A DNA stretch of 64,000 nucleotides from an uncultured Bacilli bacterium (GTDB lineage: Bacteria > Bacillota_I > Bacilli_A > RF39 > UBA660): NCBI GenBank assembly GCA_947628895.1, contig CANRBS010000001.1, positions 5,783-69,782 on the forward strand. Reading direction: 5' to 3'. A program made the translations under genes and the position numbers. The notes beneath the pieces were generated by a model. That model was not told the DNA's origin, made no database searches, and saw only the letters and a list, made by a program, of their open reading frames with translations. Each line of letters begins with the position of its first letter. Within the stretch, counting starts at the first letter, position 1. Positions 7,191 through 59,807 of the stretch are shown here, one piece after another.

Positions 7191-7679
7191 GTGAATAGTC
7201 TTATTAAAAAAATATATATTAGAAACACTATTAAAAGTAGTTCAAAAGTTATTGAAGCAAAATTTATAAAAAAAGATGGAATAAAATATTATGTAGATGG
7301 CAAAAATGTGATATTAGATTATACAAAAAATGAATTAGAAATAGCAAAATGGTTGGTAAGTATATTAGGCGGAACAATATATTTATTACCAAGAATTAAT
7401 TATCCTGAAAATATAAAGACAGCAGATTATTTATGGAATAACGAATTTTGGGATTTGAAAGAAATTAATGGAAAAGGAAAAAATATTTTAGATAATAGAA
7501 TTAAAAATTATCAAAATCAATCAAATAATTTTATTTTAGTAATTAAAAATAATAAATTAAGCATAAAAAATATTGTACTTCAAATTAATAAAATTTATAA
7601 TTCTCCACATAGATTATGGGTAAATAAAATAATAATTATTAAAAATAGCAAATTATTAATGATAATAAAAAGAGATTGA
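7191..7679 (+). CDS. hypothetical protein with a possible PD-(D/E)xK nuclease-like core
   Basis: The 162-aa ORF uses a GTG start after an AGGAGGT RBS. The motif ...TADYLWNNEFWDLKEI (D...(D/E)xK) is present. Its 3' end lies inside the tandem repeat. Confidence 0.4.
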   Translation: MNSLIKKIYIRNTIKSSSKVIEAKFIKKDGIKYYVDGKNVILDYTKNELEIAKWLVSILGGTIYLLPRINYPENIKTADYLWNNEFWDLKEINGKGKNILDNRIKNYQNQSNNFILVIKNNKLSIKNIVLQINKIYNSPHRLWVNKIIIIKNSKLLMIIKRD

Positions 7680-13486: not shown

Positions 13487-14054
13487 AATATTTCTCCTCT
13501 ATATATTTATATATTTGTTCCCAATTATCAACTCTATTAAATTTTTTTTCATCATGATTATAAGCATTAGTAAATAAAAGTACATCTATTCCTTCATTTG
13601 CTACATCAGCACAATGAGATTCTTTATCATCTATAAATAAAGTTACATTATTTTCTTTACATTCATCTTCTTTAGTACCAGTATTTACAAATACTTTATC
13701 ATATTTTATTCCATGTCTATCTAAATAATCTACTGTAAGTTTATATGGATCTTTTAAATATTTATCTTTTCTAAATGAAATAATTATTATTTTATTTCCT
13801 TCATCATGAAGTTTATTAATTATTTCCTGAGCTCCTTCTTTAATCTCTGCATGATCCATTATATATTCAAGTCTATCTTTAAAGAATTTACCTTTCATAT
13901 CTTTTTGCCATCCCATCATTTCAGTAAATTCATAAGCGGTTTCATCTTTAACCCCACTTCCACCTAGTACTTCTCTATCATATCTATCTGCTTCTTTAAT
14001 AATTAATTCATTAGTAGAGCATATAGTATCATCCATATCAATCCCAATTACCAT
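13479..14054 (-). CDS. HAD-superfamily 5'(3')-deoxyribonucleotidase-like hydrolase
   Basis: The HAD DxDxT motif is present in IGIDMDDTI. The protein is 191 aa with an NT5C/YorS-like profile. It sits between ruvA and ruvB. Confidence 0.6.
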
Positions 14055-14061
14055 AATAACC

Positions 14062-14610
14062 TCACTTTAATAATAATTTTAATGCTTCTTTTATTTGTGT
14101 TTCAATAGGCATGCTTGTATCAACTTTAGCAACAATATTTTTAATATCATTACTTTTATATCCAAGTGCTTCTAGTGCAAGTGTTAATTCATCATTTACT
14201 ATTGTATTATTTTCACTCATAACAAGTTTACCTTTTAAATCTAATATGATTTGTCTTGCTAGTTTTTCACCTATTTTAGGTATTTTCTTTAAATATAATA
14301 TATTTTCTCTATCTACAGCATCTACTATTCCATTAATTGATGATGTTGCAAGAATTGTTAAAGCCATTCTAGGGCCAAGTCCTTTAACATCTATTAGTTT
14401 TAAAAATAAATCTCTTTCATCTTCACTTATAAAACCATATAGTGTATTTTCATCTTCTCTTACATGATTATATAAATAAACCATTTCTTCTTCATCTAGT
14501 TTAAATCTATATGGATTTGGTGTATATACTCTATATCCTACACCACTTACATCAACTACAACATAATTTGCAAACTGTTTTGTTATTTTACCTTTTAAAT
14601 ATTCATACAT
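14062..14610 (-). CDS. ruvA: Holliday junction DNA helicase RuvA
   Basis: The N-terminus reads MYEYLKGKI...VVVDVSGVGYRV. A helix-hairpin-helix domain and a C-terminal domain III follow. Confidence 0.9.
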   Translation of the reverse strand: MYEYLKGKITKQFANYVVVDVSGVGYRVYTPNPYRFKLDEEEMVYLYNHVREDENTLYGFISEDERDLFLKLIDVKGLGPRMALTILATSSINGIVDAVDRENILYLKKIPKIGEKLARQIILDLKGKLVMSENNTIVNDELTLALEALGYKSNDIKNIVAKVDTSMPIETQIKEALKLLLK

Positions 14611-14659
14611 AATTTTTACCTCTATATAAAATTATAACACTCATACTTTAATATGTAAA

Positions 14660-15982: not shown

Positions 15983-16094
15983 AACACCCTCCATAACTTA
16001 ATAATAATTCTATCAAAACAAATAATAAATTTCAATAATTAAAATCATTCATAATAAAAACTAAATATATCAAAAGATACATTTAGTTTATTAA

Positions 16095-16907
16095 TTAAAA
16101 ATTAATTTCTTTTTCTACTGTATTATATAAATCATCTAATTTTGGCTTTCTCATTTGACTAAATATTATATATAATCCAATTATTATCATTAATATACTT
16201 ACTACTTGTGCTACTTTGATATTATAAAACATTAAACTATCTGTTCTAAACCATTCAATTACTAATCTAATAGCTCCATACCAGAATAAATAAAATCCTG
16301 TTATTTGTCCATTTTTTGTATATTTTCTTCTTCTTATAATTAGCATTATTATAAATCCAATTAAGCATGCAAGTGATTCAAAATAGAACATTGGTAAATG
16401 ATAATTACCATTTATATACATATTATCAATTATAAATTGAGGTATTATTTTCATATTTACAAGTGTATCATATGTTACAGCTGTGCCATAAGCTTCTCCA
16501 TTAAAGAAATTTCCCCATCTACCAATTGCTTGTGCAATTAATACTGCTGGTACAATTATATCTAACATTTTCATTAAATTAACTTTATATTTCTTACAAT
16601 ATCTAACTATAACTAATAAACCTAATATAATAGCACCATGTATTGCAAGACCACCATGCCATATCATAAATATTTCTTTAATATTACTTCCATAATAATC
16701 CCAATTAAATAATACATAATAAATTCTCGCACCAATTATACCAAATATAATAGTCCAAAACATCATGTTAAATACAAATTCTTTTTTAATTTGATATCTT
16801 CTACTTTCAGCCATTATTAATGTATAAGCAATAATAACTGCAGCTAAAATAAGAACACTATACCATCTTACTTCAAAATTTCCTATTGTTACTAAAACTG
16901 GATCCAT
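16095..16907 (-). CDS. lgt: prolipoprotein diacylglyceryl transferase
   Basis: The HGGLAIHG and GRWGNFFNGEAYG signature blocks are present. Confidence 0.9.
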   Translation of the reverse strand: MDPVLVTIGNFEVRWYSVLILAAVIIAYTLIMAESRRYQIKKEFVFNMMFWTIIFGIIGARIYYVLFNWDYYGSNIKEIFMIWHGGLAIHGAIILGLLVIVRYCKKYKVNLMKMLDIIVPAVLIAQAIGRWGNFFNGEAYGTAVTYDTLVNMKIIPQFIIDNMYINGNYHLPMFYFESLACLIGFIIMLIIRRRKYTKNGQITGFYLFWYGAIRLVIEWFRTDSLMFYNIKVAQVVSILMIIIGLYIIFSQMRKPKLDDLYNTVEKEINF

Positions 16908-16910
16908 AAT

Positions 16911-17342
16911 CTACCTTCTTCCTATATTATTTGTTATTATATTATCAAATATAATTCTCATAACACTTATAAATATTGCTATTATAAACATTGAGAATAT
17001 TCCACTAATTTCAAATGCACTTCCCATTAAAACATCACATAATTTTAATATTATCATATTTACAATTGGATATGCTATTCCATAAGTTAATATATTAAGT
17101 GGAAGTGTCCAATATATTAATAATGGTTTTACTGTATAATTTAATATACTTAATATTAATGCTGCTATTATTGAATACATAAAATTCTTAATATATAATT
17201 TTTCAAATATACCTTGAGTTATATATAATACAAGTGCATATACAATAACACCAACTATTATTTGTAATAAATCAATATTAATATCATTGTCATTTTTATT
17301 TTTATTTTTTCTTTCTATTTTATATATTTTTGCTTTTGACAT
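16911..17342 (-). CDS. DUF360/YvlD-like 4-TM membrane protein (phage holin 4_2 superfamily)
   Basis: The 143-aa protein has four TM helices. YvlD-like proteins are commonly encoded near lgt and hprK in Firmicutes. Confidence 0.5.
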   Translation of the reverse strand: MSKAKIYKIERKNKNKNDNDINIDLLQIIVGVIVYALVLYITQGIFEKLYIKNFMYSIIAALILSILNYTVKPLLIYWTLPLNILTYGIAYPIVNMIILKLCDVLMGSAFEISGIFSMFIIAIFISVMRIIFDNIITNNIGRR

Positions 17343-17348
17343 ATATTT

Positions 17349-17807
17349 TTAATTACAAGAACTTAAATAGCTCTCATAATTTCCTCCTTCAGTTTTATAA
17401 ATATAATTTCCTGCATCTCCACAATATAAATATGCATTTCCTGTATCATATATATCATTCTCATTTGCTTTTAAAACTACTATTCCACTGCATGGAACAC
17501 TTTTATAAAAAATTGTATCAAAATATTCTTTCTCTTGTAATGTAGAAATACAAACATATTTTGTTTTATCATCTATTTTTTTAAATTTAGAATTACATTC
17601 TTGCCTATGAGTATCATCAATTGAATGAGTACAATAATCTTGAACAAATAATTTAGCAGCATCTATTGCTTCACCTTCTTGAGCTTGCATTGTATCATCA
17701 ACAGATTCATTAAATATATCAATAACATTTGGTATAACTATAATTACTAATATTGCTATAATTCCAATTACTGCAAGTAATTCTACCATTGTAAAACCTT
17801 TTCTCAT
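17349..17807 (-). CDS. short type IV pilin/pseudopilin (ComGC-like) with a Cys-rich globular domain
   Basis: The prepilin leader is MRKG|FTMVELLAVIGIIAILVIIVIPNV, with F at +1 and E at +5. The mature part contains six Cys. The start was moved to the ATG that follows a GGTGA RBS. Confidence 0.75.
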   Translation of the reverse strand: MRKGFTMVELLAVIGIIAILVIIVIPNVIDIFNESVDDTMQAQEGEAIDAAKLFVQDYCTHSIDDTHRQECNSKFKKIDDKTKYVCISTLQEKEYFDTIFYKSVPCSGIVVLKANENDIYDTGNAYLYCGDAGNYIYKTEGGNYESYLSSCN

Positions 17808-17926
17808 ATCTTTCACCATATTTATTTTATCATTTAATATAAATACATTCAATAATAAAAATTAAAAAATGTAAAATTAGCATATAAAAAGTATTTAATT
17901 TTTAATAAAACTAAATACTAATATTT

Positions 17927-18601
17927 TTATTTTTTTAATTTTTTTATATTATTTTTTATAGATTCTATTTCATTTAATATTTTAATTTTATTTTTATAAC
18001 TATTTCTTAATAATATAAAACATAATATAGAAGAAATAATAAAATTAAAGAAAATAATTATAACCGTATCACTTAAAGGCTCAGTTTTGTTTGAAGGATT
18101 AGCCATTTTTTCAAATACATCATACCTATCTTCACTATTATATAATTTCACTATTTCTTCTTCAATTTGACTATTAAAACTACTAGAATAACCTACAAAT
18201 GTTTTATCACCTATTATTATAAAAGGGATACCAAATTCTTGTGAACTTGTATCATAATTAAAAAATTCTCCAACTTTATTTAAAAGTTTTGCATTATTTT
18301 CATCATACCAAGTTTCAAAAGAAATAAAATTAAAATAATTTGCATATTTTTTTAATATCGTATCATTTATATAATTAATAAAATCACTACAATGAGGACA
18401 ACCTTTTCCTCTAAATAAGTAAATATTAATTTTATCTTCACTTTCTTTATAATTACTTAAATCAGTATTAATACCCTCACTTTTAAATACATCTTCTAGT
18501 GTTTCAGTATTATAATCAGATATATTTATTTCTTCTGCTTTTATATTAATAGTATTAAAAATTAATAATAAATTTAAAATCAATAAAATTATTTTTTTCA
18601 T
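17927..18601 (-). CDS. secreted, membrane-anchored thioredoxin-fold thiol-disulfide oxidoreductase (DsbA/BdbD-like)
   Basis: A signal peptide is followed by GCPHC in a thioredoxin-like fold. A C-terminal TM anchor is present. The RBS is AAAGGAG. Confidence 0.7.
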   Translation of the reverse strand: MKKIILLILNLLLIFNTINIKAEEINISDYNTETLEDVFKSEGINTDLSNYKESEDKINIYLFRGKGCPHCSDFINYINDTILKKYANYFNFISFETWYDENNAKLLNKVGEFFNYDTSSQEFGIPFIIIGDKTFVGYSSSFNSQIEEEIVKLYNSEDRYDVFEKMANPSNKTEPLSDTVIIIFFNFIISSILCFILLRNSYKNKIKILNEIESIKNNIKKLKK

Positions 18602-18660
18602 AACATCTCCTTTCTTGATTACATTTTAACTAAATAAAATATAATATAAAATAAAGAGTT

Positions 18661-18691
18661 GGTTGAAAATAACTCAACCAAAAGTTGAGTT
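18661..18691 (-). terminator. intercistronic hairpin (weak terminator or attenuator) between the pilin-FGE gene and the oxidoreductase gene
   Basis: On the minus strand the hairpin AACTCAAC-TTTTG-GTTGAGTT is followed by AUUUUC. An overlapping alternative hairpin, GGTTGA...TCAACC, is also possible. Confidence 0.4.
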
Positions 18692-18733
18692 ATTAATGAA
18701 TAAAATTAAAATAAATTTATTTTTGAAAGAAAA

Positions 18734-20473
18734 CTAATTTTTAAGAACAATCCTAGAAGTGATGCTATAATATACATCACCGGTACTTCTAGCAAAACGA
18801 AATTGACCTGCTGTTACATTATCACTATGACCACCTCCACGATCAATCCAACTATATGAAGAATCAAGAAAGAATGAATAATCTTTATACCAAGCATTTT
18901 TATAACTTCCATCACTCCAAAATGGTCCCATTTCTCCTGTTGCATCTCCAAGGATCCTATATTTATATGTTAGTTTATCACTTGATGATGAATATTTATC
19001 TAAATATTTTGTATATGTTTCATTTGATACTATATTTTTCATTCCACTAACATTTAAATCACTACCATCTCTATATGAAGCCATATATTCCCAAGATCCG
19101 CCACTCATATCATATACTCCAGTTATATTTCCTGTAGTACTTGCTAATTTTCCAGTATCTGTATTCCATAATGCATTTTCTGTTGTACTAGTAATTGCAT
19201 CTTTAGTATTAGCTGCATATCCTGTTAAAAAATTACTATTGTTATTAATTCTTACTTCATCTTTTATTCCATATTTAGAGTGTGAAAGATATGCAACTGC
19301 TCCCCACTCTGTATTTTTCATCATATGACTATCTAAGCTTCTATTAAAATTGTAAGCATTCATAAATAAATTATATACTGTTGCACCTCTCCATGAATAT
19401 ACATTAGGTTTTATTATTATATTATTAGGTTTTTCTTCATCTACTTCTGAATTTTCTTTTATCCAAGTAGATATATTTTCATCAGTTATTGGTTGTGTTG
19501 TATCACTATTTTGATTATATCCTGTTTCAAATTTTCCTACCCAAAATCCATTTGATGGTATTGATAAAAATGCTGGATGTGTCATTAAATCTCCTACTTT
19601 GCAATCTTTTGTAGCCACACTTGCTCTTGATGAACCACTTTCCATTGGTGTTATACATTCACCACTTACTTCACTTGTTGTTCTTGTTCCAAATTCTATC
19701 TCTATTTCTTTTATTTGACTTTCTGGTTGACTACTTTCTAAGCCTTCATAGTTTCCAATATTGAATATTCTATAACTATATTTTGGTATCCATACAAAAT
19801 ATGCCCTTATATCACTTTCTAATATTGTATCTCCTTCTTTATATTCTTTACTTGGAGTGTCTACTAGTATTACTGCATTTGCCCATTTCTTTGATGTATA
19901 TTTATACCATTCATCATACTCATCCGCATATGTTACTACACCTGTATCTGATAACATTATTGGTATCATTTTATCTCCTAGTACTGGGTCAGCTCCATTT
20001 AATTCACTTTCTACATATTTTGTTTTTGGTTTTTCTCCATCAATCAATTGATTTCCTTTACAATCAGTTATACTTGTCTTGGCTTCTTCTACTTTATACT
20101 TTTTACCTATGTCTTCTCTTTGTATTCCACTTGATGAAGAAGCTATTAATTCATTTGCTTCATCTCTTGCGGATATTTCTACTATCTTCCCTTTATCATT
20201 AAATTTTACTACATATAATATGTTACTTCTTCCATCTAAATTTAATACATTTGTACTACTATCAAAACATCTTATTTCTTTATTTCCAATTGAAGAAGAT
20301 ACATATTTATCTTCAGCACTTCTTATTATATTTTGTACTTCACGGGTAAATGTATTTACTTTTGCATCTCTAAACATTTTAAGTACATTTGGAAGTGCTA
20401 TAATAACTAAAATTGCTAAAATTGCTATTACTGCTAGTAACTCTACTAATGTAAATCCTTTTTTATCTTTCAT
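18734..20473 (-). CDS. modular type IV pilin: prepilin N-terminal domain fused to an FGE/SUMF1-like (C-type-lectin-fold) C-terminal domain
   Basis: The leader is MKDKKG|FTLVELLAVIAILAILVIIALPNV. A D-region disulfide (C...C) is present. The C-terminus reads ...EWGAVAYL...GVYDMSGGSWEY, resembling the FGE motif G.YDMSGNVWEW. The protein is about 80% identical to 58074..59807. Confidence 0.7.
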   Translation of the reverse strand: MKDKKGFTLVELLAVIAILAILVIIALPNVLKMFRDAKVNTFTREVQNIIRSAEDKYVSSSIGNKEIRCFDSSTNVLNLDGRSNILYVVKFNDKGKIVEISARDEANELIASSSSGIQREDIGKKYKVEEAKTSITDCKGNQLIDGEKPKTKYVESELNGADPVLGDKMIPIMLSDTGVVTYADEYDEWYKYTSKKWANAVILVDTPSKEYKEGDTILESDIRAYFVWIPKYSYRIFNIGNYEGLESSQPESQIKEIEIEFGTRTTSEVSGECITPMESGSSRASVATKDCKVGDLMTHPAFLSIPSNGFWVGKFETGYNQNSDTTQPITDENISTWIKENSEVDEEKPNNIIIKPNVYSWRGATVYNLFMNAYNFNRSLDSHMMKNTEWGAVAYLSHSKYGIKDEVRINNNSNFLTGYAANTKDAITSTTENALWNTDTGKLASTTGNITGVYDMSGGSWEYMASYRDGSDLNVSGMKNIVSNETYTKYLDKYSSSSDKLTYKYRILGDATGEMGPFWSDGSYKNAWYKDYSFFLDSSYSWIDRGGGHSDNVTAGQFRFARSTGDVYYSITSRIVLKN

Positions 20474-20505
20474 TTTTGTTACCTCTTCTCTATTTTTACC
20501 CCCTT

Positions 20506-20534
20506 ATTATATCGTATATATATATATATATCAA
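20506..20534 (-). promoter_or_regulatory. sigma-A-type promoter of the pilin-FGE gene with a (TA)8-containing 17-nt spacer
   Basis: On the sense strand the promoter reads TTGATA-(TA)n CGA-TATAAT. It is followed by a conserved leader AATAGAGAAGAGGTAACAAAAATG with a GAGG RBS. Confidence 0.5.
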
Positions 20535-20582
20535 GAGGCACCTTACTAATTTTACAAACTATTATTGCTTTTAGTTATATAA

Positions 20583-20613
20583 ATTAAAAAAAGATTACTA
20601 CACTTGTAATCTT
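20583..20613 (-). terminator. Rho-independent terminator of the XRE regulator gene
   Basis: The hairpin AAGATTAC-N7-GTAATCTT is followed by a U-run on the minus strand. It overlaps the stop codon. Confidence 0.6.
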
Positions 20614-21292
20614 AATTTTGATTTATATCAATTGGAATTTTATATGATATTGTTTTTAAATTATCGCTCTTTAAACTTATTTCTAAATACATTTTAGTGT
20701 TTACAAATAATGAATTTTCATTATTATAATTATCTAATTTTAATTTTAAATTTTTTAAATAATTATTAAGTGTTTTATTATTACCTTTTTCACATTCACC
20801 TAATTTTATTTTTTTGCCATTAACTTCACCATATAATATACAATCTAAATTTTTATATATTGTATTATCATCTTTACCATTATATTTAACTTCAGTTATT
20901 ATTAATGATGCTTTTCTTTCACTCCTTGCAACACTTCCTACTATTTTAAAATCATTATTACTAGATTTTATTTCATTTAATGAAAATATTAAATTTTTAT
21001 TTTTAACCATTATAAAACTCATTATTAAAAAAGCAAATACTATTAATGTTACATTTAATATAGTTAACATATCAATTTTAACATTCTTTTTTGCATTAAT
21101 AATTTCATCAATATCAACATTAAATTTATTACTTATTTCTTTTAAGATTAACATATCAGGTAAATTTTTACCATTTTCCCATTTACTAACAGCTTGAAAT
21201 GTAACACCTAATATATCTGCAAATTCTCGTTGTGATAAATTATTTTTAAGTCTTATATTTTTTATAAATTTACCTATTTTCTCTTGATTCAT
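20612..21292 (-). CDS. membrane-anchored XRE-family HTH transcriptional regulator with an extracytoplasmic C-terminal domain
   Basis: The N-terminal HTH_3 domain reads LSQREFADILGVTFQAVSKWENG. One TM helix follows (LTILNVTLIVFAFLIMSFIMV), then a 130-aa outside domain. Confidence 0.7.
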   Translation of the reverse strand: MNQEKIGKFIKNIRLKNNLSQREFADILGVTFQAVSKWENGKNLPDMLILKEISNKFNVDIDEIINAKKNVKIDMLTILNVTLIVFAFLIMSFIMVKNKNLIFSLNEIKSSNNDFKIVGSVARSERKASLIITEVKYNGKDDNTIYKNLDCILYGEVNGKKIKLGECEKGNNKTLNNYLKNLKLKLDNYNNENSLFVNTKMYLEISLKSDNLKTISYKIPIDINQN

Positions 21293-21367
21293 AAATTCTT
21301 TTTCCTTTTTCTATATTATACAATAAATTAATATTTTTTAACATATAAAAAGTAGATAAAATAAAAT

Positions 21368-21856
21368 CTACTTATCAATTGTACCAAATTTATCAAATGG
21401 CCATATTCTAAATTTAACTTTTCCAACAAAGTCTTCTTTTTTAAAATTACCGATCATTCTACTATCTTTAGAAAGTGGTCTATTATCACCAAGCACAAAA
21501 TATTCATTACTACCAGTAGTAGCTTTAAAATCTTCAGTATCTCTAAATTTTATATTAGATGAAACTATTTCTCCATTAATATATAAAACATTATCTTTAT
21601 ATTCAATTGTTTCATTTGGAAGACCAATTACTCTTTTAATAATTTTATCTTTTTCTGTTTTTAAAACTACTATATCAAATCTTTTAATATCATCAATTTT
21701 ATATGCTAATTTATTTATAAATACTACTTGTCCATCAGCAAGAGTACTATCCATACTACCACCATCAACAATAGCTGGTGTCACAATAAATGAACGAATA
21801 AGTACAACAACTAATATAATAAATACATAATCTTTAATAGCATGCCAAAATCTCAT
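21368..21856 (-). CDS. lepB: signal peptidase I (SipS/LepB type)
   Basis: An N-terminal TM helix is present. The catalytic Ser lies in GGSMDSTL and the catalytic Lys in KRVIGLP. The GDNRPLSKDSR box is present. Confidence 0.85.
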   Translation of the reverse strand: MRFWHAIKDYVFIILVVVLIRSFIVTPAIVDGGSMDSTLADGQVVFINKLAYKIDDIKRFDIVVLKTEKDKIIKRVIGLPNETIEYKDNVLYINGEIVSSNIKFRDTEDFKATTGSNEYFVLGDNRPLSKDSRMIGNFKKEDFVGKVKFRIWPFDKFGTIDK

Positions 21857-21901
21857 ATTATCACCCTTTCTATTTTTTAATAAAAAATTAGGCTTTAAAA
21901 C

Positions 21902-22240
21902 CTAATTTCTTTCTTTTAATTTGAATGTTCCTGTTAAATCTTTTAAGAAGTTAAGTTTAGCTCTTCTAGCTTTTCCTTTTTTAACAACTGTAATTTTATC
22001 AATTAAAGGACTATTAACTGGAAAAACTCTATTAATTCCTACATTTCCACTTTTCTTTCTAACTGTAAAAGTTTCACTAACACTTCCACCTTTACGAGCA
22101 GTTACAATTCCTTCAAAAGCTTGAATTCTCTCTCTCTTTCCTTCTTTAATTTTTACATCAACTCTAACTGTATCTCCAACTTGAAATTCTGGAACATTAG
22201 GATTAATGTGTTTCTTATTGATCTTATCAATCAAATTCAT
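21902..22240 (-). CDS. rplS: 50S ribosomal protein L19
   Basis: The sequence PEFQVGDTVRVDVKIKEGKRERIQAFEGIV...VRRAKL is characteristic of L19. Confidence 0.9.
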   Translation of the reverse strand: MNLIDKINKKHINPNVPEFQVGDTVRVDVKIKEGKRERIQAFEGIVTARKGGSVSETFTVRKKSGNVGINRVFPVNSPLIDKITVVKKGKARRAKLNFLKDLTGTFKLKERN

Positions 22241-22416
22241 CGTATATTCCTCCTTTTGCTTTATTCAATCATACATAATATGCAGCGGATTTGAGCAATA
22301 TGATAATATCATAAAATATTTAATTTATCAAGTGTTTTATTGAAATTTCATATATTTATTAATTGACATATAAAGACATAAATGTTATAATACAAAGCCA
22401 TGTTTTAGGAGGGGTT

Positions 22417-23649
22417 ATGAAAAAAAGAATTCTTGATTCAAGAGAAATTAGAGAAATTTTAAATATTGATGCTTCAGATAAATCTGATGAAGAAAAAGCA
22501 AAATTATTAAATGATTTATGTAATATAAATGATATAGAAAATACTATTGAATATAATAAATTTAAAAAAATTGAAGGTAAAAATACAATAAAAGCATATG
22601 AAATATATAAATCATTTGTTGATAAAGGTTTATTATTTAAATATGAAGCAAAATATAATTGTGATTTTAATGAAATGAAAAAAAGATTAGATAAATTAAT
22701 TATTATAAATGATGCTTTATTAGATGAAACTAAAAGTGATTATCAAAAAGCATATGTATTTTTATCTTGTTATAATAATATAAGATCATTTAAAGAATCT
22801 TACGGATTATTTATTAATAGAGGATTATTATATTGTAAAACTCCTGATGAAAGATTGAATTATGCTAGTGATGTTTTATTAAATTTTAAAAATATTTTAA
22901 ATTCTATTATTAGTTTAGATGAAAGAGGAATTATTAAAGCTGTAAAATATGTTATAAAATGTGAAAATTATAATAAATATTATAACTATGCTAAATTTGT
23001 TATAGAAAGTTATATTAATTCTAATACTAGTCATAAGAAAAAAGAATTTTTAAATAGTTTAGGAATTAATGAAGACATACTTAATTATTGTATTAAAATA
23101 ATAGAAGAATTAGATTTAGACTTGTATAATAAATATTTAGCTAAAAAAGAAGAAAATTATAAAAAAACAATTCTTAGAAATGAAAAAATATTACTTAATT
23201 TAGAAGAAGGAATTGAAACTGGATATATGCCTAATGGTGAAAAGTTTGATATATTATTATTTATTAAAAAAGTACCATTTAAAAATCATCCATATTTTTA
23301 TGATCATATGAAAAAATTTATTCTTCGTTTTATACCTAGTTGTTATAGTACAATTATTAATTATATTTATCAAAATAAATTACAAGATTTAAATCATATT
23401 GAATTAATAGATGAAAATGAGTTATATAATACAAAAGAAATAGTAAGAAATCATGTAATGACTAGAGAAGAAAAAGAAATAATAATTAATTATTTAAAAT
23501 TAAGAAGAATACCAATTATTCCAAAAACTTATACAATAGCAAGAAATATGTATTTTAATAATGAATTAGATTATTCAAATATTAATAGTGATACTATTAA
23601 AGAAAAAAAAGAATTAAATTTTACTTTAATTCCAACAATAAAACAATAA
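22417..23649 (+). CDS. hypothetical cytoplasmic protein
   Basis: The ORF encodes 410 aa from the ATG that follows a GGAGGGG RBS. No motif is recognisable. Confidence 0.5.
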   Translation: MKKRILDSREIREILNIDASDKSDEEKAKLLNDLCNINDIENTIEYNKFKKIEGKNTIKAYEIYKSFVDKGLLFKYEAKYNCDFNEMKKRLDKLIIINDALLDETKSDYQKAYVFLSCYNNIRSFKESYGLFINRGLLYCKTPDERLNYASDVLLNFKNILNSIISLDERGIIKAVKYVIKCENYNKYYNYAKFVIESYINSNTSHKKKEFLNSLGINEDILNYCIKIIEELDLDLYNKYLAKKEENYKKTILRNEKILLNLEEGIETGYMPNGEKFDILLFIKKVPFKNHPYFYDHMKKFILRFIPSCYSTIINYIYQNKLQDLNHIELIDENELYNTKEIVRNHVMTREEKEIIINYLKLRRIPIIPKTYTIARNMYFNNELDYSNINSDTIKEKKELNFTLIPTIKQ

Positions 23650-23672
23650 AAAGACTTTATGTCTTTTTTTAT
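23649..23672. terminator. bidirectional terminator hairpin
   Basis: The hairpin AAAAGAC-TTTAT-GTCTTTT is followed by a T-run. It lies between convergent genes. Confidence 0.5.
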
Positions 23673-24895
23673 TGTTTTTGTAATTCTCTATTTCTCTTTT
23701 CACGATTATTTTCTATATTAATTCTTTGTACTACTGCAAATGAACAAATAACTGTTATGCAAAAACTACCACCATAACTTAAGAATGGAAGTGGAACTCC
23801 AGTTAATGGAATAATTCCAAGAACTCCACCTAAATTAACAAATATATGTAACATAAAGTATATTCCAATTCCATAACAAATAATTGAATTTTGAAGTGAA
23901 TATGAATTTACTGCTACTTTAAAGACTAAAAATATAAGTACCATATATCCAATTATTATAAGTACTCCAGTAATTACACCAAGTTCTTCTACTACTATTG
24001 GGAAGATAAAATCTGTGTGGCTTGCTGGTAAATATAAATATTTTTGTACTGACTCTCCTATTCCACTTCCAAATATTCCACCATTATCCATTGCTATATA
24101 TCCATTACAAACTTGATAACCAGAGATTTCCTCATATCTATCACATGGATTTTTATAAATAAATCTATTTAATCTATAATCACTTGTTAATATACTTTCT
24201 GGTATTATTAAATATGCAAATTTTAATACAACGACTGCTAAAACTAAAAGAGTACAAGCTATTATTTTAAGTTTATTAAATAATTTATCTTTAGTAGGTA
24301 CACACATAAATACAAGAGCATATAAAGCAGCCATTATAGCAGCACTACCAAAGTCTCCTCCTAAAAATATAAGTCCAGCAGAGACAACACATAAAATAAT
24401 TGGTACAAAGAAAGAGTACTTTATATGTACTTTACTATTAGCCCAACTACCATAGAATGCCCCCATATACATAATTAAAAATACTTTTAAAAACTCTGCA
24501 GGTTGAAATCTTCCACCAAATAAAGATAATGTAACTTCATTTACATCACTACTAAAAAGTGAATTTTTTAAGTATACTATTAATAAAGCTCCCATAAATA
24601 CAAGAGATAATACTAGTGATAGACCTTTATAATATTTAGTTGGAAATTTAATTACAAAAATTGATGCAAAAAGTGCTATTGCTATAAATAAAAGTTGTCT
24701 TTCAAAAAAATAATATGCATCTTCTCCATAAGTTAATACTGCTGATATACTAGATGCATCTAATATTAAAAAAGCCCCGCCAATAGCAAAAATCAAAGTC
24801 AATAATAAAATTGGCTTATTTAAATCTTTTAATAAACTAACTTTTCTCTTTTTACTATTTTTCATACTATATAAATTATATAAAAAATAAATCAA
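23669..24895 (-). CDS. SEDS-family peptidoglycan glycosyltransferase (FtsW/RodA)
   Basis: The protein has 10 TM helices. The C-terminal blocks read ...LPASHTDFIFPIVVEELG... and PLTGVPLPFLSYGGS. Confidence 0.85.
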   Translation of the reverse strand: MIYFLYNLYSMKNSKKRKVSLLKDLNKPILLLTLIFAIGGAFLILDASSISAVLTYGEDAYYFFERQLLFIAIALFASIFVIKFPTKYYKGLSLVLSLVFMGALLIVYLKNSLFSSDVNEVTLSLFGGRFQPAEFLKVFLIMYMGAFYGSWANSKVHIKYSFFVPIILCVVSAGLIFLGGDFGSAAIMAALYALVFMCVPTKDKLFNKLKIIACTLLVLAVVVLKFAYLIIPESILTSDYRLNRFIYKNPCDRYEEISGYQVCNGYIAMDNGGIFGSGIGESVQKYLYLPASHTDFIFPIVVEELGVITGVLIIIGYMVLIFLVFKVAVNSYSLQNSIICYGIGIYFMLHIFVNLGGVLGIIPLTGVPLPFLSYGGSFCITVICSFAVVQRINIENNREKRNRELQKQ

Positions 24896-39588: not shown

Positions 39589-41457
39589 ATGATATATTAC
39601 TCAAAATCTTATGGAATAGATGATTGTATAAATAGACAAATAGATATATCAATATCTCTTAGTAAAGAGTTTAGTGATAAAACTATTTATATGTTAAATG
39701 ATGATACAAATTTTAAAGACTTATTTAAAAATACAAATATTAAAGTAATAAATGATTATAAAAAATTAAAAGAAAATGATATAGTTGTTTTAAACTATTA
39801 TGGTGAAAGTAAAAATACTTATGATTATTTAAACAAAAATAAAATCATTTATTATGAATCATGTTCATTTGATATATCTAATACTAGTAAAACTATATTA
39901 GAAAAATATAATCAAAAATTTAATATTATTATAGTTGGAGATAAAAACTCAAAAGAAGTAATTAATTATAATACTTGGTGTAATAAAAAAGCATTAATTA
40001 TTGATAACATTAGTGATTTTAAGTTAATAAATAAAAATAATTATTTTATATTTTATTCTTTATATACATCAGTTGAATTATTAAATGAATTACAAAAATA
40101 TTTAAATGAAAATAAAATTGATTATGAAATAGATAATTCTATTTATGAAAGACAAAATAATATAGAAAAAGATACTATTAATTTATCTGAATATGTAGAT
40201 AAATTAATTATATTAGGAAGTAGTAATTATACTAATAAATTAGTACAAAAATGTTCTTTAAATACTAAAGTATATTTATATAAAGATATAAATGAATTTT
40301 ATAAAGGTATTAAAGCTGAAAAATTCACTAATGAAGAAAAAATAGGATTTTCTATGGAAGAAAATATTTCTAGAAATATTATGTATGATTGTGCTCATTT
40401 ATTAGAATTTTATATTTATTATAAAGATAGAATTAAAGATATAGAAGAAGAAATAAATAATTTTAATGAATTTATCAAATCAAAAGATAATAAAATTATA
40501 ACTGAGGCTATTCAAAAATTTATTAATATGAATAGTGGTGGTAAATATTTAAGAGCAATACTTATTGATCTTGGATATAAGTTAAATAAAGATAGTGATT
40601 ATGCACTTAAACTCGCTTCTTCTTATGAAGCATTTCAAACTTCTATATTAATACATGATGATATTATTGATAACTCTTGTTTTAGAAGAGGAAAAGAAAC
40701 TATTTCATATAGCTATAAAAAAGAATTTGAGTGTTTTAACTCTAATGATAATATTCATAATAATTTAGCTCTTTGTATTGGTGACTTAGGATTTTACTTC
40801 GTAAATGAATATATACTAAATAATTATAAAGATAATAAAAACTTTAATAAATTATTTTCTTATTATAATAATATTGTTATTAATACTATTAAAGGTGAAA
40901 TACTTGATGTTTATTTACCTTTTGTTGAAGAGTATGATAAAAAACGGGTATTAAAAGAAGAAGATATAATGGAAATATATAAATTGAAAACGGCACACTA
41001 CTCTATAGTCGGTCCATTTGTTATGGGAATGATACTATCTAACTCAAGAGATGATGAAATTAAAGAAATGGAAAATATTTTAGAGAATGTTGGTATTGCT
41101 TTTCAAATAAAAGATGATATTTTAGGTATTTATAGTAGTAATGAAATACTTGGAAAACCAGTATTTAGTGATATTGAAGAATTTAAACAAACAATACTTT
41201 ATTCTTATATTAAAATTAATAAAAAAGAATATTTAAATGAATTACTAAAATATTATGGTAAAAAAGAATTAACAGAAGATACTGCGGTAAAAGTACAAAA
41301 AATCATTGAAGAATCTGGTTCACTAAAATATGCTAATGATAAAATGAATGATATGTTTACTTTAGCTAAAAGAGAAATTAATTTTCTTCAAATTAATAAA
41401 GAAATAAAAGATATACTACTAGGTTTAATAGTATATTTAGAATTAAGGGAAAAATAA
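39589..41457 (+). CDS. trans-polyprenyl diphosphate synthase (IspA/GGPPS-like) with a 300-aa N-terminal extension of unknown function
   Basis: The C-terminal half carries both Asp-rich motifs (ILIHDDIIDN and FQIKDDILG). The N-terminal half has an IILGSSNYTNKL block weakly reminiscent of the IspH/LytB VVGSxNSSNS box. Confidence 0.7.
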   Translation: MIYYSKSYGIDDCINRQIDISISLSKEFSDKTIYMLNDDTNFKDLFKNTNIKVINDYKKLKENDIVVLNYYGESKNTYDYLNKNKIIYYESCSFDISNTSKTILEKYNQKFNIIIVGDKNSKEVINYNTWCNKKALIIDNISDFKLINKNNYFIFYSLYTSVELLNELQKYLNENKIDYEIDNSIYERQNNIEKDTINLSEYVDKLIILGSSNYTNKLVQKCSLNTKVYLYKDINEFYKGIKAEKFTNEEKIGFSMEENISRNIMYDCAHLLEFYIYYKDRIKDIEEEINNFNEFIKSKDNKIITEAIQKFINMNSGGKYLRAILIDLGYKLNKDSDYALKLASSYEAFQTSILIHDDIIDNSCFRRGKETISYSYKKEFECFNSNDNIHNNLALCIGDLGFYFVNEYILNNYKDNKNFNKLFSYYNNIVINTIKGEILDVYLPFVEEYDKKRVLKEEDIMEIYKLKTAHYSIVGPFVMGMILSNSRDDEIKEMENILENVGIAFQIKDDILGIYSSNEILGKPVFSDIEEFKQTILYSYIKINKKEYLNELLKYYGKKELTEDTAVKVQKIIEESGSLKYANDKMNDMFTLAKREINFLQINKEIKDILLGLIVYLELREK

Positions 41458-56112: not shown

Positions 56113-57879
56113 CTAATTTAATAATGTTATTTTTGCATAACCATTTCCAGTATGTCCAACTTCTGTTCCACCATCTGGTTTTGGCATACTCTCATTTCCA
56201 GCAATCATTTGTGTCTCTGTAAATACTTTTCCACTATAATGGTTTGGAGAGTCTAAATGCTTTATATTATTTTCTGTTGAAGTTGCTGTTATTGCTTTAC
56301 ATCCTGGGTGACCTGATATAAATGAAGATCCACCTGAACCTGATGATTTTGATCTAACATTTTGTGATTTACCACCATAATATCCGCCTCCGCCTCCACC
56401 GACACCATCTCCTGCAGCATAACCAACACCATCCATTCCTTTTCCTAAAGCATACCCACTTGTTTGACTTCCACCTAAAAGTGTATCATATAATGTTCTT
56501 GCAGAAAGTCCTCCTCCTTCGCCAACATCAAATTCCCAAGACCTTCCACCACCGCCAGCTGCAACCATTATTCTTGATTTTAAACTTTCAAAATTATCCC
56601 ATTTACCACTAGTTAGTCTTACATCAGTAGCTCCTCCGCCTCCACCAGAAGTCTCATCGTCACTACCATCAGTAGTTCCAAGACCTCCACCATTATATCC
56701 TCCTAGTGAATTTTCTCTTAAAACTGCATCTACTCCTTTACCTCCAACATAAATATATAACTCTTCATCTTTATTTAAAGTTATTTTTCCAGTTGTATAT
56801 GCTCCATTTCCGCCTTCTTTACCTCTCTTACCACTCATTAATGAGGCACCACCTTGTCCACCCCATAATTCAATTTTATATACTCCTGTTTTTGGTACTA
56901 CAAATGTCTCATAATTTCCAGTAAATGTATAATTTACTTTTGACCATATTGCATATAATGTTACTCTACCATTTTTATCACTTGTTAAATTTTTTACTAT
57001 TTCATTATTTTCATATGTTATTACTTTTGAAGTTTTATCTAATGACCAACCTACAAATTGATAACCATCTCTTGTAAAATTATTTGCAGTTAATTTTTCT
57101 TCTTTATCATATGTATGTGTTGATGAAGTTGTTTGTCCAGTTCCTTCATTTGCATTATATTCTACTGTATATGTATGAGCTTCATACTTACTTTCTAACA
57201 CAGTTGTACTATTTAATTTTGATAAATTTTCTTCTACTATATTTCCAACTTCATCAATTACTTTATCTTCAGTATTTGGTATATAATATCCTAAAAAATC
57301 ATATCCTTCTTTTTCTACTACTTTATCTAATTTTGTTATTTGAGTTGTTTTATCTTCTTTATATAATTTTCCATCATTTAAATATCCATAATTTGGAGTT
57401 GAGCCATCAAATGAGATTATTGGATATTTTGTTTCACTTCCTTGAAATATCAAACTTCCATCACAATCAAATATTATTGTTTCTTGACCTCTTTGATTTA
57501 CTTTATATGTTTTTCCTATATCTTCTTTTTTTATTCCATTTTCATTTGTAGCTATTAATTCATAAGTATTATCTACAATTTTTATTTCTGTTATTTTACC
57601 TTTATTTGATAATCTTATTAAATATACCATATCACTTCTTCCATCTAAATCTAATTTATTTTTATTACTATCAAAGCAGGTTACTCTTTTACTCCCTAAT
57701 GATAAAGATACAAACTTATTTTCTGCCTCTCTTATCATATTTTGTACTTCACTTGTAAATGTTTTTTCTGTTGAACCTTTAAATAATTTTAATACATTTG
57801 GTACTGCTATGATTACAAGTATCGCGAGTATTGCTATTACTGCTAGTAACTCTATTAATGTAAATCCTTTTTTCTTCAT
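56113..57879 (-). CDS. modular type IV pilin: prepilin domain, then a Listeria/Bacteroides flg_new repeat, then a Gly-rich C-terminal domain
   Basis: The leader is MKKKG|FTLIELLAVIAILAILVIIAVPNV. The flg_new repeat reads YTVEYNANEGTGQ...DGYQFVGWS...VTLYAIWS. The C-terminal Gly-rich domain reads VYKIELWGGQGG...LYIYVGGKG. Confidence 0.7.
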   Translation of the reverse strand: MKKKGFTLIELLAVIAILAILVIIAVPNVLKLFKGSTEKTFTSEVQNMIREAENKFVSLSLGSKRVTCFDSNKNKLDLDGRSDMVYLIRLSNKGKITEIKIVDNTYELIATNENGIKKEDIGKTYKVNQRGQETIIFDCDGSLIFQGSETKYPIISFDGSTPNYGYLNDGKLYKEDKTTQITKLDKVVEKEGYDFLGYYIPNTEDKVIDEVGNIVEENLSKLNSTTVLESKYEAHTYTVEYNANEGTGQTTSSTHTYDKEEKLTANNFTRDGYQFVGWSLDKTSKVITYENNEIVKNLTSDKNGRVTLYAIWSKVNYTFTGNYETFVVPKTGVYKIELWGGQGGASLMSGKRGKEGGNGAYTTGKITLNKDEELYIYVGGKGVDAVLRENSLGGYNGGGLGTTDGSDDETSGGGGGATDVRLTSGKWDNFESLKSRIMVAAGGGGRSWEFDVGEGGGLSARTLYDTLLGGSQTSGYALGKGMDGVGYAAGDGVGGGGGGYYGGKSQNVRSKSSGSGGSSFISGHPGCKAITATSTENNIKHLDSPNHYSGKVFTETQMIAGNESMPKPDGGTEVGHTGNGYAKITLLN

Positions 57880-58043: not shown

Positions 58044-58074
58044 ATATAAAAAAAGAAGTAAACCAGTTACTTCT
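58044..58074 (-). terminator. Rho-independent terminator of the pilin-FGE paralogue
   Basis: The hairpin AGAAGTAA-ACCAG-TTACTTCT is followed by UUUUUU on the minus strand. It overlaps the stop codon. Confidence 0.6.
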
Positions 58075-59807
58075 TAATTGGTTGGTGTAAGAACAAGACG
58101 AGAACCATTACTAGGATATGCTACACCCCTATTCCTGTCAAAGTTGAATTGACCAGTAATATATGTATTATTGTAACCACCACCACGATTAAACCAAGGC
58201 TGAGTAGAATGAACAAAATTTGAAAAGTCAGTATACCAAGTACTTTGATTATAACTACCACTACTCCAAAATGGTCCAAGCTCTCCTGTTGCATCTCCGA
58301 GGATTCTATATTTATATAACAATCTATCACTTGATTCTAAATATTTTTCTAAATATTTTGTGTATGTTTCATTTAATACTATATTTTCCATTCCACTAGC
58401 ACTTAAATCACTACCATCTCTATATGAGGCCATATATTCCCAATATCCACCACCTATATCATATATTCCACTTATATTTCCTGTTGTACTTGCTAAATGT
58501 CCTATTGATGTATTCCATTTTGAATTTTCAGTTGCACTTCCTTCTGCGTCTTTTTCATTTGCTGCATAGCCTGTTAAATAATTACTATTATTATTTATTC
58601 TTACTCCATCTTGTATTCCATATTTTGAATATGAAAGATATGCAACAGCTCCCCACTCAGTATTTTTCATCATGTGACTATCTAAGTTTCTTTTAAAATT
58701 GTAGGCACTTTGAAAAAATGTTGCAATTGTTTGATCTCTCCATGAATATACATTAGGTTTTACTATTATATTTGATGGCTTTTCTTCATCTACTTGCGCA
58801 TTTTCAGTTGTCCAAGTAGATATATCAGTATCAGTTATAGGTAAACTTGGATCTTCATTTTGATTATATCCTGTTTCAAATTTTCCTACCCAGAATCCAT
58901 TACTTGGTATACTTAAGAATGCTGGATGTGTCATTAAATCTCCTATATCACACTCCCCAGTTTCTCCACTTTCCATTGGACTTGCACATTCTTTTTTTAT
59001 TTCATCATTTACTGTTGTTCTTGTTCCAAATTCTATCTCTATTTGTTGAACACTACTTTTTTCTGGTTCACTACTTTCTAATCCTTCATAATTTCCTAAA
59101 TTGAATATTCTATAACTATATTTTGGTATCCATACAAAATATGCACGTATATCTGATTCTGCTATTACTTCCCCTTCAGTATATTTTTTACTTGGCTTGT
59201 CTACTAATATTACTGCATTTGCCCATTTCTTTTCAGTATATTTATACCACTCATCATACTCATGTGCATATGTTACTACTCCTGCATCTGATAATATTAC
59301 TGGTATCATTCCACTTCCTAGTACTGGATCAGACCCATTTAATTCACTTTCTTTGTATACTATTTTTTCTCCACTAGTTAACTCATTTCCATTACAATCT
59401 AATATTTGTGTTTTTGCTTCATTTACTTTATACTTTTTTCCTATGTCTTCCCTTTGTATTCCATTTGTATTATTTGCTATTAATTCATTTGCTTCATCTC
59501 TTGCCCTTACTTCTATTACTTTTCCTTTATCGTTAAATTTAACTATATATAATATATTACTTCTTCCATCTAAATTTAATGCATTTGTACTACTATCAAA
59601 ACATCTTACTTCTTTATTTCCAATTGAAGCAGAAATATATTTACTCTCAGCACTCTTCATTATATTTTGTACTTCACTTGTAAATGTATTAACTTTGGCA
59701 TCCCTAAACATTTTTAAAACATTTGGAAGTGCTATAATAACTAGTATTGCTAATATTGCAATTACTGCTAAAAGTTCTACTAATGTAAAAGCATTTTTAT
59801 TTTTCAT
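58074..59807 (-). CDS. modular type IV pilin with an FGE/SUMF1-like C-terminal domain (paralogue of 18734..20473)
   Basis: The leader is MKNKNA|FTLVELLAVIAILA, with Ala rather than Gly at position -1. The protein is about 80% identical to the 579-aa paralogue across the pilin domain, the central IRAYFVWIPKYSYRIF block and the C-terminal domain. Confidence 0.7.
   Translation of the reverse strand: MKNKNAFTLVELLAVIAILAILVIIALPNVLKMFRDAKVNTFTSEVQNIMKSAESKYISASIGNKEVRCFDSSTNALNLDGRSNILYIVKFNDKGKVIEVRARDEANELIANNTNGIQREDIGKKYKVNEAKTQILDCNGNELTSGEKIVYKESELNGSDPVLGSGMIPVILSDAGVVTYAHEYDEWYKYTEKKWANAVILVDKPSKKYTEGEVIAESDIRAYFVWIPKYSYRIFNLGNYEGLESSEPEKSSVQQIEIEFGTRTTVNDEIKKECASPMESGETGECDIGDLMTHPAFLSIPSNGFWVGKFETGYNQNEDPSLPITDTDISTWTTENAQVDEEKPSNIIVKPNVYSWRDQTIATFFQSAYNFKRNLDSHMMKNTEWGAVAYLSYSKYGIQDGVRINNNSNYLTGYAANEKDAEGSATENSKWNTSIGHLASTTGNISGIYDIGGGYWEYMASYRDGSDLSASGMENIVLNETYTKYLEKYLESSDRLLYKYRILGDATGELGPFWSSGSYNQSTWYTDFSNFVHSTQPWFNRGGGYNNTYITGQFNFDRNRGVAYPSNGSRLVLTPTN

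Follow-up and report, generated by a model that had tools for sequence, protein, structure and literature searches.

Does a cysteine-rich pilin that is encoded next to an oxidoreductase have that enzyme to itself? This question is raised by a 64,000-nucleotide stretch of contig CANRBS010000001.1 from an uncultured Bacilli bacterium (hereafter the window), in which a gene for an exported thioredoxin-fold protein with a CPHC active site (the Trx protein, 17927..18601) is flanked upstream by a gene for a large prepilin-type protein (pilin-FGE, 18734..20473) and downstream by a gene for a short prepilin with six cysteines (17349..17807). All three genes lie on the minus strand, as do the other genes mentioned below unless the plus strand is given. 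In Bacillus subtilis, the BdbDC pair is needed for the disulfide bond of the ComGC pseudopilin (as cited in PMC7212644). The initial annotation of the locus described the Trx protein as a dedicated, DsbA-like oxidase, and the gene arrangement as a self-contained module for pilin maturation. We analyzed the 64-kb window together with flanks of ±10 kb around the Trx-family gene in other species. The best explanation for the window is that three separately transcribed genes have come to lie side by side by genome rearrangement. It is probable (about 65%) that the Trx protein serves the whole clade as a general thiol-disulfide oxidoreductase outside the cytoplasm, and that such a rearrangement placed it beside a six-cysteine prepilin.

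The exported thioredoxin-fold protein

The Trx protein is 224 amino acids long. It begins with MKK, a hydrophobic core of 12 residues and IKA|EE, giving a signal peptide of residues 1-22, and the Ala at position -1 is kept in at least 90% of 28 aligned homologues. The active site reads YLFRGKGC68PHC71. Near the C-terminus, a hydrophobic helix (approximately residues 181-203), which is conserved in the alignment of 28 family members, is followed by a Lys-rich tail, implying an extracellular redox domain and a cytoplasmic tail. The protein is secreted via a cleavable Sec signal, and its C-terminal helix keeps it tethered on the outer membrane face. This bears out the initial annotation, which had described a GCPHC active site between a signal peptide and a C-terminal transmembrane anchor; the protein is not cytoplasmic, since signal peptide and anchor place the redox domain on the outside. 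Invariant in the alignment are Y61, F63, R64, G65, C68, C71, E96, N103, P126, G131 and G137. P126, which lies in the motif G-[VI]-P-[YF]-I-[IV]-I-G, takes the cis-Pro position and forms the cis-Pro loop expected of a thioredoxin-fold enzyme.

An AlphaFold2 (AF2) model with a predicted local distance difference test score (pLDDT) of 89 showed the order beta1-alpha1-beta2-CxxC-alpha2-beta3-alpha3-beta4-beta5-alpha4, followed by the long C-terminal helix. The N-terminal unit (strand 32-34, helix 35-41) is as in thioredoxin, and the subsequent elements are strand 58-64, C68-C71, helix 69-86, strand 90-96, helix 101-113, strands 127-130 and 133-136, and helix 140-155. The model contains the beta-alpha-beta-alpha-beta-beta-alpha core of the thioredoxin fold, with the CxxC motif where the first core helix starts. 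The top Foldseek matches were thioredoxins, with probabilities of 0.97-0.99 and target template modelling scores of 0.55-0.67, but all with E values above 0.001, and small glutaredoxins were returned as well. The best profile matches among solved structures were the small redoxins of Archaeoglobus fulgidus (Grx-1, 3ic4, E = 2.8e-4) and Methanothermobacter thermautotrophicus (1nho). The former shares the CPHC motif and a 'VP..(I/V)..G' cis-Pro strand with the Trx protein; however, these redoxins have only 85-92 residues, with neither a signal peptide nor the additional N-terminal beta-alpha unit and C-terminal transmembrane helix of the Trx protein. Membership of the DsbA/BdbD family was rejected: neither DSBA (PF01323) nor Thioredoxin_4 (PF13462) matched at E <= 0.1, the 55 residues from C71 to P126 form one strand and one helix in the model, leaving no helical insertion, and there was no DsbA chain among the top 50 Foldseek matches. 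The designation 'DsbA-like' was therefore wrong at the family level.

The best Pfam match, PF13098 (Thioredoxin_2), remained below threshold (17.8 bits, cut-off 27), and the NCBIfam search, which includes TIGR01295, gave no match; the family thus escapes the current curated Pfam and NCBIfam models. It is nevertheless large, comprising 97 homologous protein clusters, nearly all of 190-270 amino acids and without Pfam assignment. In a scan with one genome per species, it was found in 395 species among 440 candidate species loci, all of them uncultured gut metagenome-assembled genomes (MAGs) labelled "Bacilli", "Tenericutes", "Erysipelotrichaceae" or "Mycoplasmatota". The Trx protein is a thioredoxin-fold member of this clade-wide, unnamed family.

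The six-cysteine prepilin and its genetic partners

The short prepilin starts at MRKG|FTMVE, with a GGTGA ribosome-binding site 5 nucleotides upstream, and public gene callers likewise give a protein of 152 amino acids. The leader and mature start, MRKG|FTMVELLAVIGIIAILVIIVIPNV (F1 to E5 of the mature protein), constitute a class III signal, as indicated by matches to PF07963 (N_methyl; 26.1 bits, cut-off 21.2) and TIGR02532 (24.1 bits, cut-off 16.3). The prepilin start and the six cysteines (positions 59, 71, 86, 106, 129 and 151) had been correctly recognized in the initial annotation. The six cysteines are invariant in three close homologues. An exhaustive HMMER search with the pilin head alone (residues 34-152) yielded 102 representative clusters, and a prepilin N-terminus was present in 96 of them. 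Fusions to large surface proteins (longer than 230 amino acids) account for 34 clusters, the other 68 being short. Since the six cysteines are 85-99% conserved across the approximately 100 clusters, the head likely carries three structural disulfides. As an N-terminal module the six-cysteine head was seen in proteins of 286-1461 amino acids (P0108, P0109, P0114, P0116, P0121, P0132, P0142 and P0144), which bear further surface domains, among them repeats of the leucine-rich or 'FDTSNVTxM' type.

The AF2 model of the short prepilin, built from only 3 sequences (pLDDT 74), has a long alpha1 helix (residues 7-60) followed by a beta-sheet of five strands. This model of moderate confidence gave no significant Foldseek match in the PDB. 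ComGC identity was rejected, as NF040999 scored 29.2 bits against a cut-off of 75, and the match was confined to the N-terminal 36 residues. A metagenome scan with the head alignment returned just three spurious matches of high G+C content. The pilin head is a lineage-restricted family.

In the window, the prepilin gene is followed after 6 nucleotides by a gene for a four-transmembrane PF04020 protein (16911..17342, annotated 'phage holin 4_2'), and after another 3 nucleotides by lgt (16095..16907). The same order, short pilin-PF04020-lgt, spanning 16095..17807 in the window, was found at two other loci, L094 (4374..6071) and L095; across the window and these loci, the gaps between the pilin and PF04020 genes are 2-6 nucleotides. 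On a 1.8-kb contig (L089, 918..1801) pilin and PF04020 genes are visible before the contig ends. The conserved genetic partners of the short prepilin are PF04020 and lgt, and not the oxidoreductase. A link between Trx and lgt, by which the lipobox cysteine would be kept reduced, was considered and discarded, as lgt travels with the pilin block and other species do not have it close to Trx.

Upstream of the Trx gene, pilin-FGE encodes 579 amino acids with 4 cysteines. It combines a prepilin-type N-terminus with a weak FGE-sulfatase-like region, whose match lies below the Pfam cut-off (21.4 versus 23.3 bits). A possible tie between FGE-like surface proteins and the Trx gene (4 loci) was uninformative, two of the contigs holding immediate neighbours only. 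The window contains 4 prepilin-type genes among about 60, and this organism seems to make general use of the prepilin signal to export or anchor its big surface proteins. The two remaining genes both encode large proteins: one (56113..57879, minus strand) combines N_methyl with a Listeria-Bacteroides repeat (Flg_new) and an ALK/LTK glycine-rich domain (PF12810, E = 1.4e-52), and the other (58074..59807, minus strand) is 67% identical to the pilin-FGE protein of locus L009 (orthologue of the gene at 18734..20473).

Linkage across species and the junction in the window

Linkage was assessed in 83 Trx loci, i.e. 82 other species and the window. A prepilin gene was present within ±2 genes of the Trx gene at only 2 of these loci, the window and L009, where the Trx protein is 71% identical and a pilin-FGE gene lies upstream. 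Among some 1,240 open reading frames (ORFs) that neighbour the Trx gene in the other species, only three showed a prepilin motif. In the closest relative (L011, Trx 83% identical) the order is rplS-lepB-HTH-Trx, with a pilin on neither side, and pilin-FGE, present next to Trx in the window and L009, is accordingly a variable neighbour. The reverse test gave the same picture, with a nearby Trx gene at 0 of 6 other loci of the short-pilin family. In the closest homologues (L089, L094 and L095) the order is rpmF-pilin-PF04020(-lgt), thus with rpmF rather than Trx upstream, and more distant members occur between housekeeping genes, as recX-pilin next to prsA or as valS-pilin-pilin...secDF, or beside a ParA gene. 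The oxidoreductase can hardly be called 'dedicated' when the prepilin pairing is missing in 81 of the 82 other species, including L011, and around the 6 other members of the short-pilin family.

The sister MAG CANRJN01 shows how the junction may have arisen. In this genome, ftsW-rplS-lepB-HTH-pilinFGE-Trx lies on contig 22 (L009), and rpmF-pilin-PF04020-lgt, with the short-pilin orthologue (61% identity), lies on contig 69 (L094). By tblastn, the first block (ftsW to pilin-FGE and Trx) mapped to 24865..17966 of the window and the second (pilin-PF04020-lgt) to 17807..16098, while the genes that border the two blocks in CANRJN01 were found nowhere in the window. This distribution over separate contigs, with the flanking genes missing, indicates that the 119-nucleotide spacer between Trx and the short pilin is a synteny breakpoint, and that the adjacency is specific to this species. 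The comparison also shows that the two prepilin adjacencies of the Trx gene arose separately.

Transcription signals at the locus fit this division. A hairpin between the pilin-FGE and Trx genes, already mentioned in the initial annotation, indeed exists; it has a terminator-like 12-bp stem (18668..18694, minus strand; z = -3.8 for the region relative to shuffled sequences), and it overlaps with an alternative hairpin with a T-rich tail (18659..18681). A terminator scan of 16000..21500 found its sole terminator-like site here. Overlooked before was a second terminator-like hairpin in the spacer that separates the Trx gene from the short pilin (approximately 17881..17919, minus strand, z = -2.5), which consists of an AU-rich 13-bp stem followed by the U-run UUUUUAUAU. 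Behind this hairpin, a promoter scan detected the promoter-like site TTGAAT-17-TAAAAT (17852..17824, minus strand) in front of the short prepilin gene. The hairpins on both sides of Trx, the promoter-like site and the gaps of 6 and 3 nucleotides suggest that Trx may be monocistronic, and that pilin, PF04020 and lgt may form one operon. When the regions in front of the three genes were compared for a common operator or promoter motif, only AT-rich low-complexity repeats emerged. Scanning 16000..22500 against Rfam revealed no riboswitch or leader (nothing at E <= 1).

The complete gene order around the junction is ftsW (23669..24895), rplS, lepB, HTH_3, pilin-FGE, Trx, short pilin, PF04020, lgt, a SpoU methylase gene, a sigma factor gene and ruvA. 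The HTH_3 gene (20612..21292, minus strand) encodes a regulator with one transmembrane helix and an ectodomain with 2 cysteines, and is a member of the conserved block ftsW-rplS-lepB-HTH-(pilin-FGE)-Trx. Between ftsW and rplS, an ORF of 428 amino acids without Pfam family lies on the opposite strand (22363..23649, plus strand). It has a counterpart of 410 amino acids in L011 and is missing at the equivalent position in L009, and therefore is a variable insertion within otherwise conserved synteny.

Redox direction and competing explanations

In 79 of the 83 Trx-family members (95%) the active site follows the pattern Cx[H/Y/F]C (CGYC, CAYC, CGFC, CSHC, CPHC and others), and none of the 83 has a Pro at the second variable position (CGPC, CxPC). 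Oxidases and isomerases carry such motifs (CPHC in DsbA and MdbA, CGYC in DsbC, CGHC in PDI), and the reductants thioredoxin and ResA have CGPC and CEPC, respectively. We also determined cysteine parity, applying a heuristic signal-peptide classifier to approximately 1,300 ORFs from the 83 Trx loci, collapsed to families. Exported families with at least 2 cysteines were even in 34 cases and odd in 11 (binomial p = 8e-4), compared to 138 even and 118 odd for cytoplasmic families (exported versus cytoplasmic, Fisher p = 0.008), a result that depends on crude recognition of signal peptides and on ORFs sampled with a bias to Trx neighbourhoods. An even-cysteine bias is a published indicator of enzymatic disulfide formation, reported for Actinobacteria and not for aerobic Firmicutes, which tend to exclude cysteine from their exported proteins (PMC2823432). 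The CxxC pattern, the even-cysteine bias and the six conserved pilin cysteines together point to the oxidase/isomerase direction.

The Cys68-Cys71 disulfide would then most likely be donated to exported substrates, after which small-molecule disulfides, or a partner whose gene lies elsewhere, would re-oxidize the Trx protein. The short prepilin, with three putative disulfides in its head, would be one plausible client among many. The substrate-like pilin of the initial annotation keeps its chemical plausibility, next to an exported CPHC thioredoxin-fold protein and with six conserved cysteines, and by analogy with known systems the two proteins may plausibly be enzyme and substrate, but the dedicated linkage does not hold. 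For the recycling step there is a possible parallel in the anaerobe Clostridium botulinum, whose DsbA works without a partner and is recycled by small-molecule disulfides (PMC12453122). This oxidase of an anaerobic Firmicute needs neither DsbB nor VKOR, but unlike the Trx protein it is a DsbA homologue.

Several other systems resemble parts of this picture. The ComGC pathway also has an extracytoplasmic oxidoreductase that serves a prepilin-type protein in a monoderm (as cited in PMC7212644), and ComGC contains one disulfide compared to the three presumed in the short prepilin. The gene for BdbD, itself a general oxidase, is not located beside comG, which fits the general role proposed here. 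BdbD, whose gene shares an operon with that of the DsbB-like BdbC, has the helical insertion of DsbA-like proteins, the motif CPSC and an anchor at its N-terminus, whereas the Trx protein has a plain thioredoxin topology and a C-terminal anchor, and no DsbB-like gene was seen in the window and 82 flanks (a weak test). MdbA of Actinomyces and Corynebacterium is a membrane-anchored CPHC oxidoreductase that oxidizes exported proteins, including pilins such as FimA, and related proteins have been proposed, from genomics only, to fold type IV pilins in Candidate Phyla Radiation (CPR) bacteria (PMC6744442). MdbA resembles the Trx protein in its motif and in being anchored in the membrane, and is a general oxidase, not a pilin-dedicated one; however, it has a DsbA-type fold, an N-terminal transmembrane segment and re-oxidation by VKOR, often encoded adjacently in CPR, in contrast to the different fold and anchor found here and the lack of a visible VKOR. 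PedC/BrcD proteins (TIGR01295) are exported Firmicutes thioredoxin-fold CxxC proteins that secure the disulfides of small cysteine-rich exported proteins and are encoded beside their substrate. They differ in that the Trx protein has no TIGR01295 match and that bacteriocin genes are absent.

A weak resemblance to PedC/BrcD was found in the commonest neighbour of the Trx family, a second exported thioredoxin-fold protein of approximately 230 amino acids with a CPWC motif. Its gene occurs within four genes of Trx at 25 of the 83 loci, directly downstream in 20 species and sometimes with a paralogue, and is absent from the window. These CPWC proteins (e.g. L058, 10714..11415 and 13933..14622; L036, 10668..11375) have a lipoprotein-type or signal-anchor N-terminus and often a cysteine-rich C-terminal tail of the CxxxC...CxxC type, and they match TIGR01295 at E values around 1e-8 with 34-35 bits, far below the cut-off of 120 bits.

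Three other explanations were weighed against a general oxidoreductase. The one proposed initially, a co-regulated maturation module of all three genes whose oxidoreductase is dedicated to oxidizing the cysteines of the neighbouring pilins (pilin-FGE and the short pilin), is quite unlikely. The three genes do share a strand and are tightly spaced, with a prepilin gene on either flank of Trx and with six conserved cysteines in the one pilin and four in the other; pilin-FGE is adjacent to Trx in L009 as well, and BdbDC provides the precedent of a pilin that depends on such an enzyme (PMC7212644). Against the module, the pairing is lacking in 81 of 82 other species, L011 among them, the short-pilin orthologue is on another contig of the sister MAG and the junction is a synteny breakpoint, terminator-like hairpins lie on both sides of Trx, and no shared upstream motif was found. 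Nor is the locus self-contained, since a motif scan and Pfam analysis of 30 further ORFs found no prepilin peptidase, assembly ATPase or PilD/PilB/PilC within the 64-kb window, and a DsbB- or VKOR-like partner was not seen there either. Alternatively, the Trx protein could be an extracytoplasmic reductase comparable to ResA, CcmG, TlpA or Etrx, fed by CcdA or DsbD, which keeps exported cysteines reduced or repairs oxidized proteins and makes no disulfides. Small thioredoxin-fold proteins that Firmicutes tether to the membrane are mostly reductases, the fold is that of a plain thioredoxin and not of DsbA, and the organism, known from gut MAGs, is presumably an anaerobe. The shunning of exported cysteines by aerobic Firmicutes (PMC2823432) also agrees with a reductase. 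We consider this explanation unlikely in view of the 95% Cx[H/Y/F]C motifs without Pro at the second position, the even-cysteine bias of the clade's exported proteins and the frequent CPWC neighbour with its weak likeness to disulfide isomerases. In addition, phmmer searches with approximate query sequences, a weak test that does not establish absence, found no BdbC- or CcdA-like gene, either re-oxidizing or electron-feeding, in the window and the 82 flanks.

A very improbable third explanation holds that the Trx protein and the adjacent membrane-bound HTH_3 regulator are a redox-sensing or redox-controlled signalling pair, with the pilins as bystanders. An orthologous XRE/HTH_3 gene, encoding one transmembrane helix and an ectodomain with 2 or 5 cysteines, lies within two genes of Trx in 7 species including the window, belonging to two sub-lineages (e.g. 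L027, 5773..6456; L046, 4961..5644; L056, 6553..7233). The ectodomain cysteines are conserved within each type, and lepB-HTH-Trx is a conserved core in the three closest species. Against this, only 7 of the 83 loci show the association, in which the genes differ in position and order, and regulators of the XRE type are abundant.

A general oxidoreductase beside an unrelated prepilin thus fits best, yet several observations weigh against it. With 4 prepilin-type genes among about 60, the naive chance of finding one on each flank of Trx is approximately 0.3%, and the recurrence of the pilin-FGE/Trx adjacency in one sister species (L009) makes some local selection for this linkage possible. The terminator-like hairpins are AU-rich, and terminator- and promoter-like signals, being common in a genome so rich in AT, are weak evidence (the window has a G+C content of approximately 22%); 68 promoter-like sites were found where 59 were expected, and read-through co-transcription is possible. 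The oxidase/isomerase direction is derived from motif statistics and a heuristic signal-peptide classifier, and neighbour clustering of the window and the 82 flanks of ±10 kb revealed no DsbB- or VKOR-like partner for re-oxidation.

A pilin gene with its own oxidase would have been a compact system for pilin folding in a monoderm, a value that is lost as, on the present evidence, the linkage is accidental. What remains is a large family of thioredoxin-fold proteins whose C-terminal anchor is unusual, a six-cysteine pilin-head family and an even-cysteine signature among exported proteins. These suggest that such gut bacteria make extracellular disulfides, while the usual DsbA/DsbB or MdbA/VKOR machinery was not found in the sequence examined, which bears on how host-associated gut Bacilli stabilize their surface proteins. 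It is also conceivable, though less likely than not, that the Trx family and the PedC-like CPWC proteins represent an undescribed oxidative-folding system, independent of DsbB and VKOR, in uncultured low-GC host-associated Bacilli ('Tenericutes'/RF39-like), supporting a lineage-specific expansion of disulfide-rich surface proteins with prepilin signals. If true, this expansion would include the six-cysteine pilin heads, alone or fused in proteins of up to 1461 amino acids, and the system would contradict the notion that exported proteins of Firmicutes are mostly kept free of cysteine.

Two further ORFs in the window, both on the plus strand, stand apart from the genes discussed above. One of 162 amino acids (7191..7679) contains a CdiA C-terminal toxin domain (PF18451, E = 6e-15) and no obvious delivery domain. 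The other (39589..41457) joins a LytB/IspH-like region (PF02401) to a polyprenyl synthetase domain (PF00348) within a single protein of 622 amino acids, an apparent fusion of two enzymes of the isoprenoid pathway.

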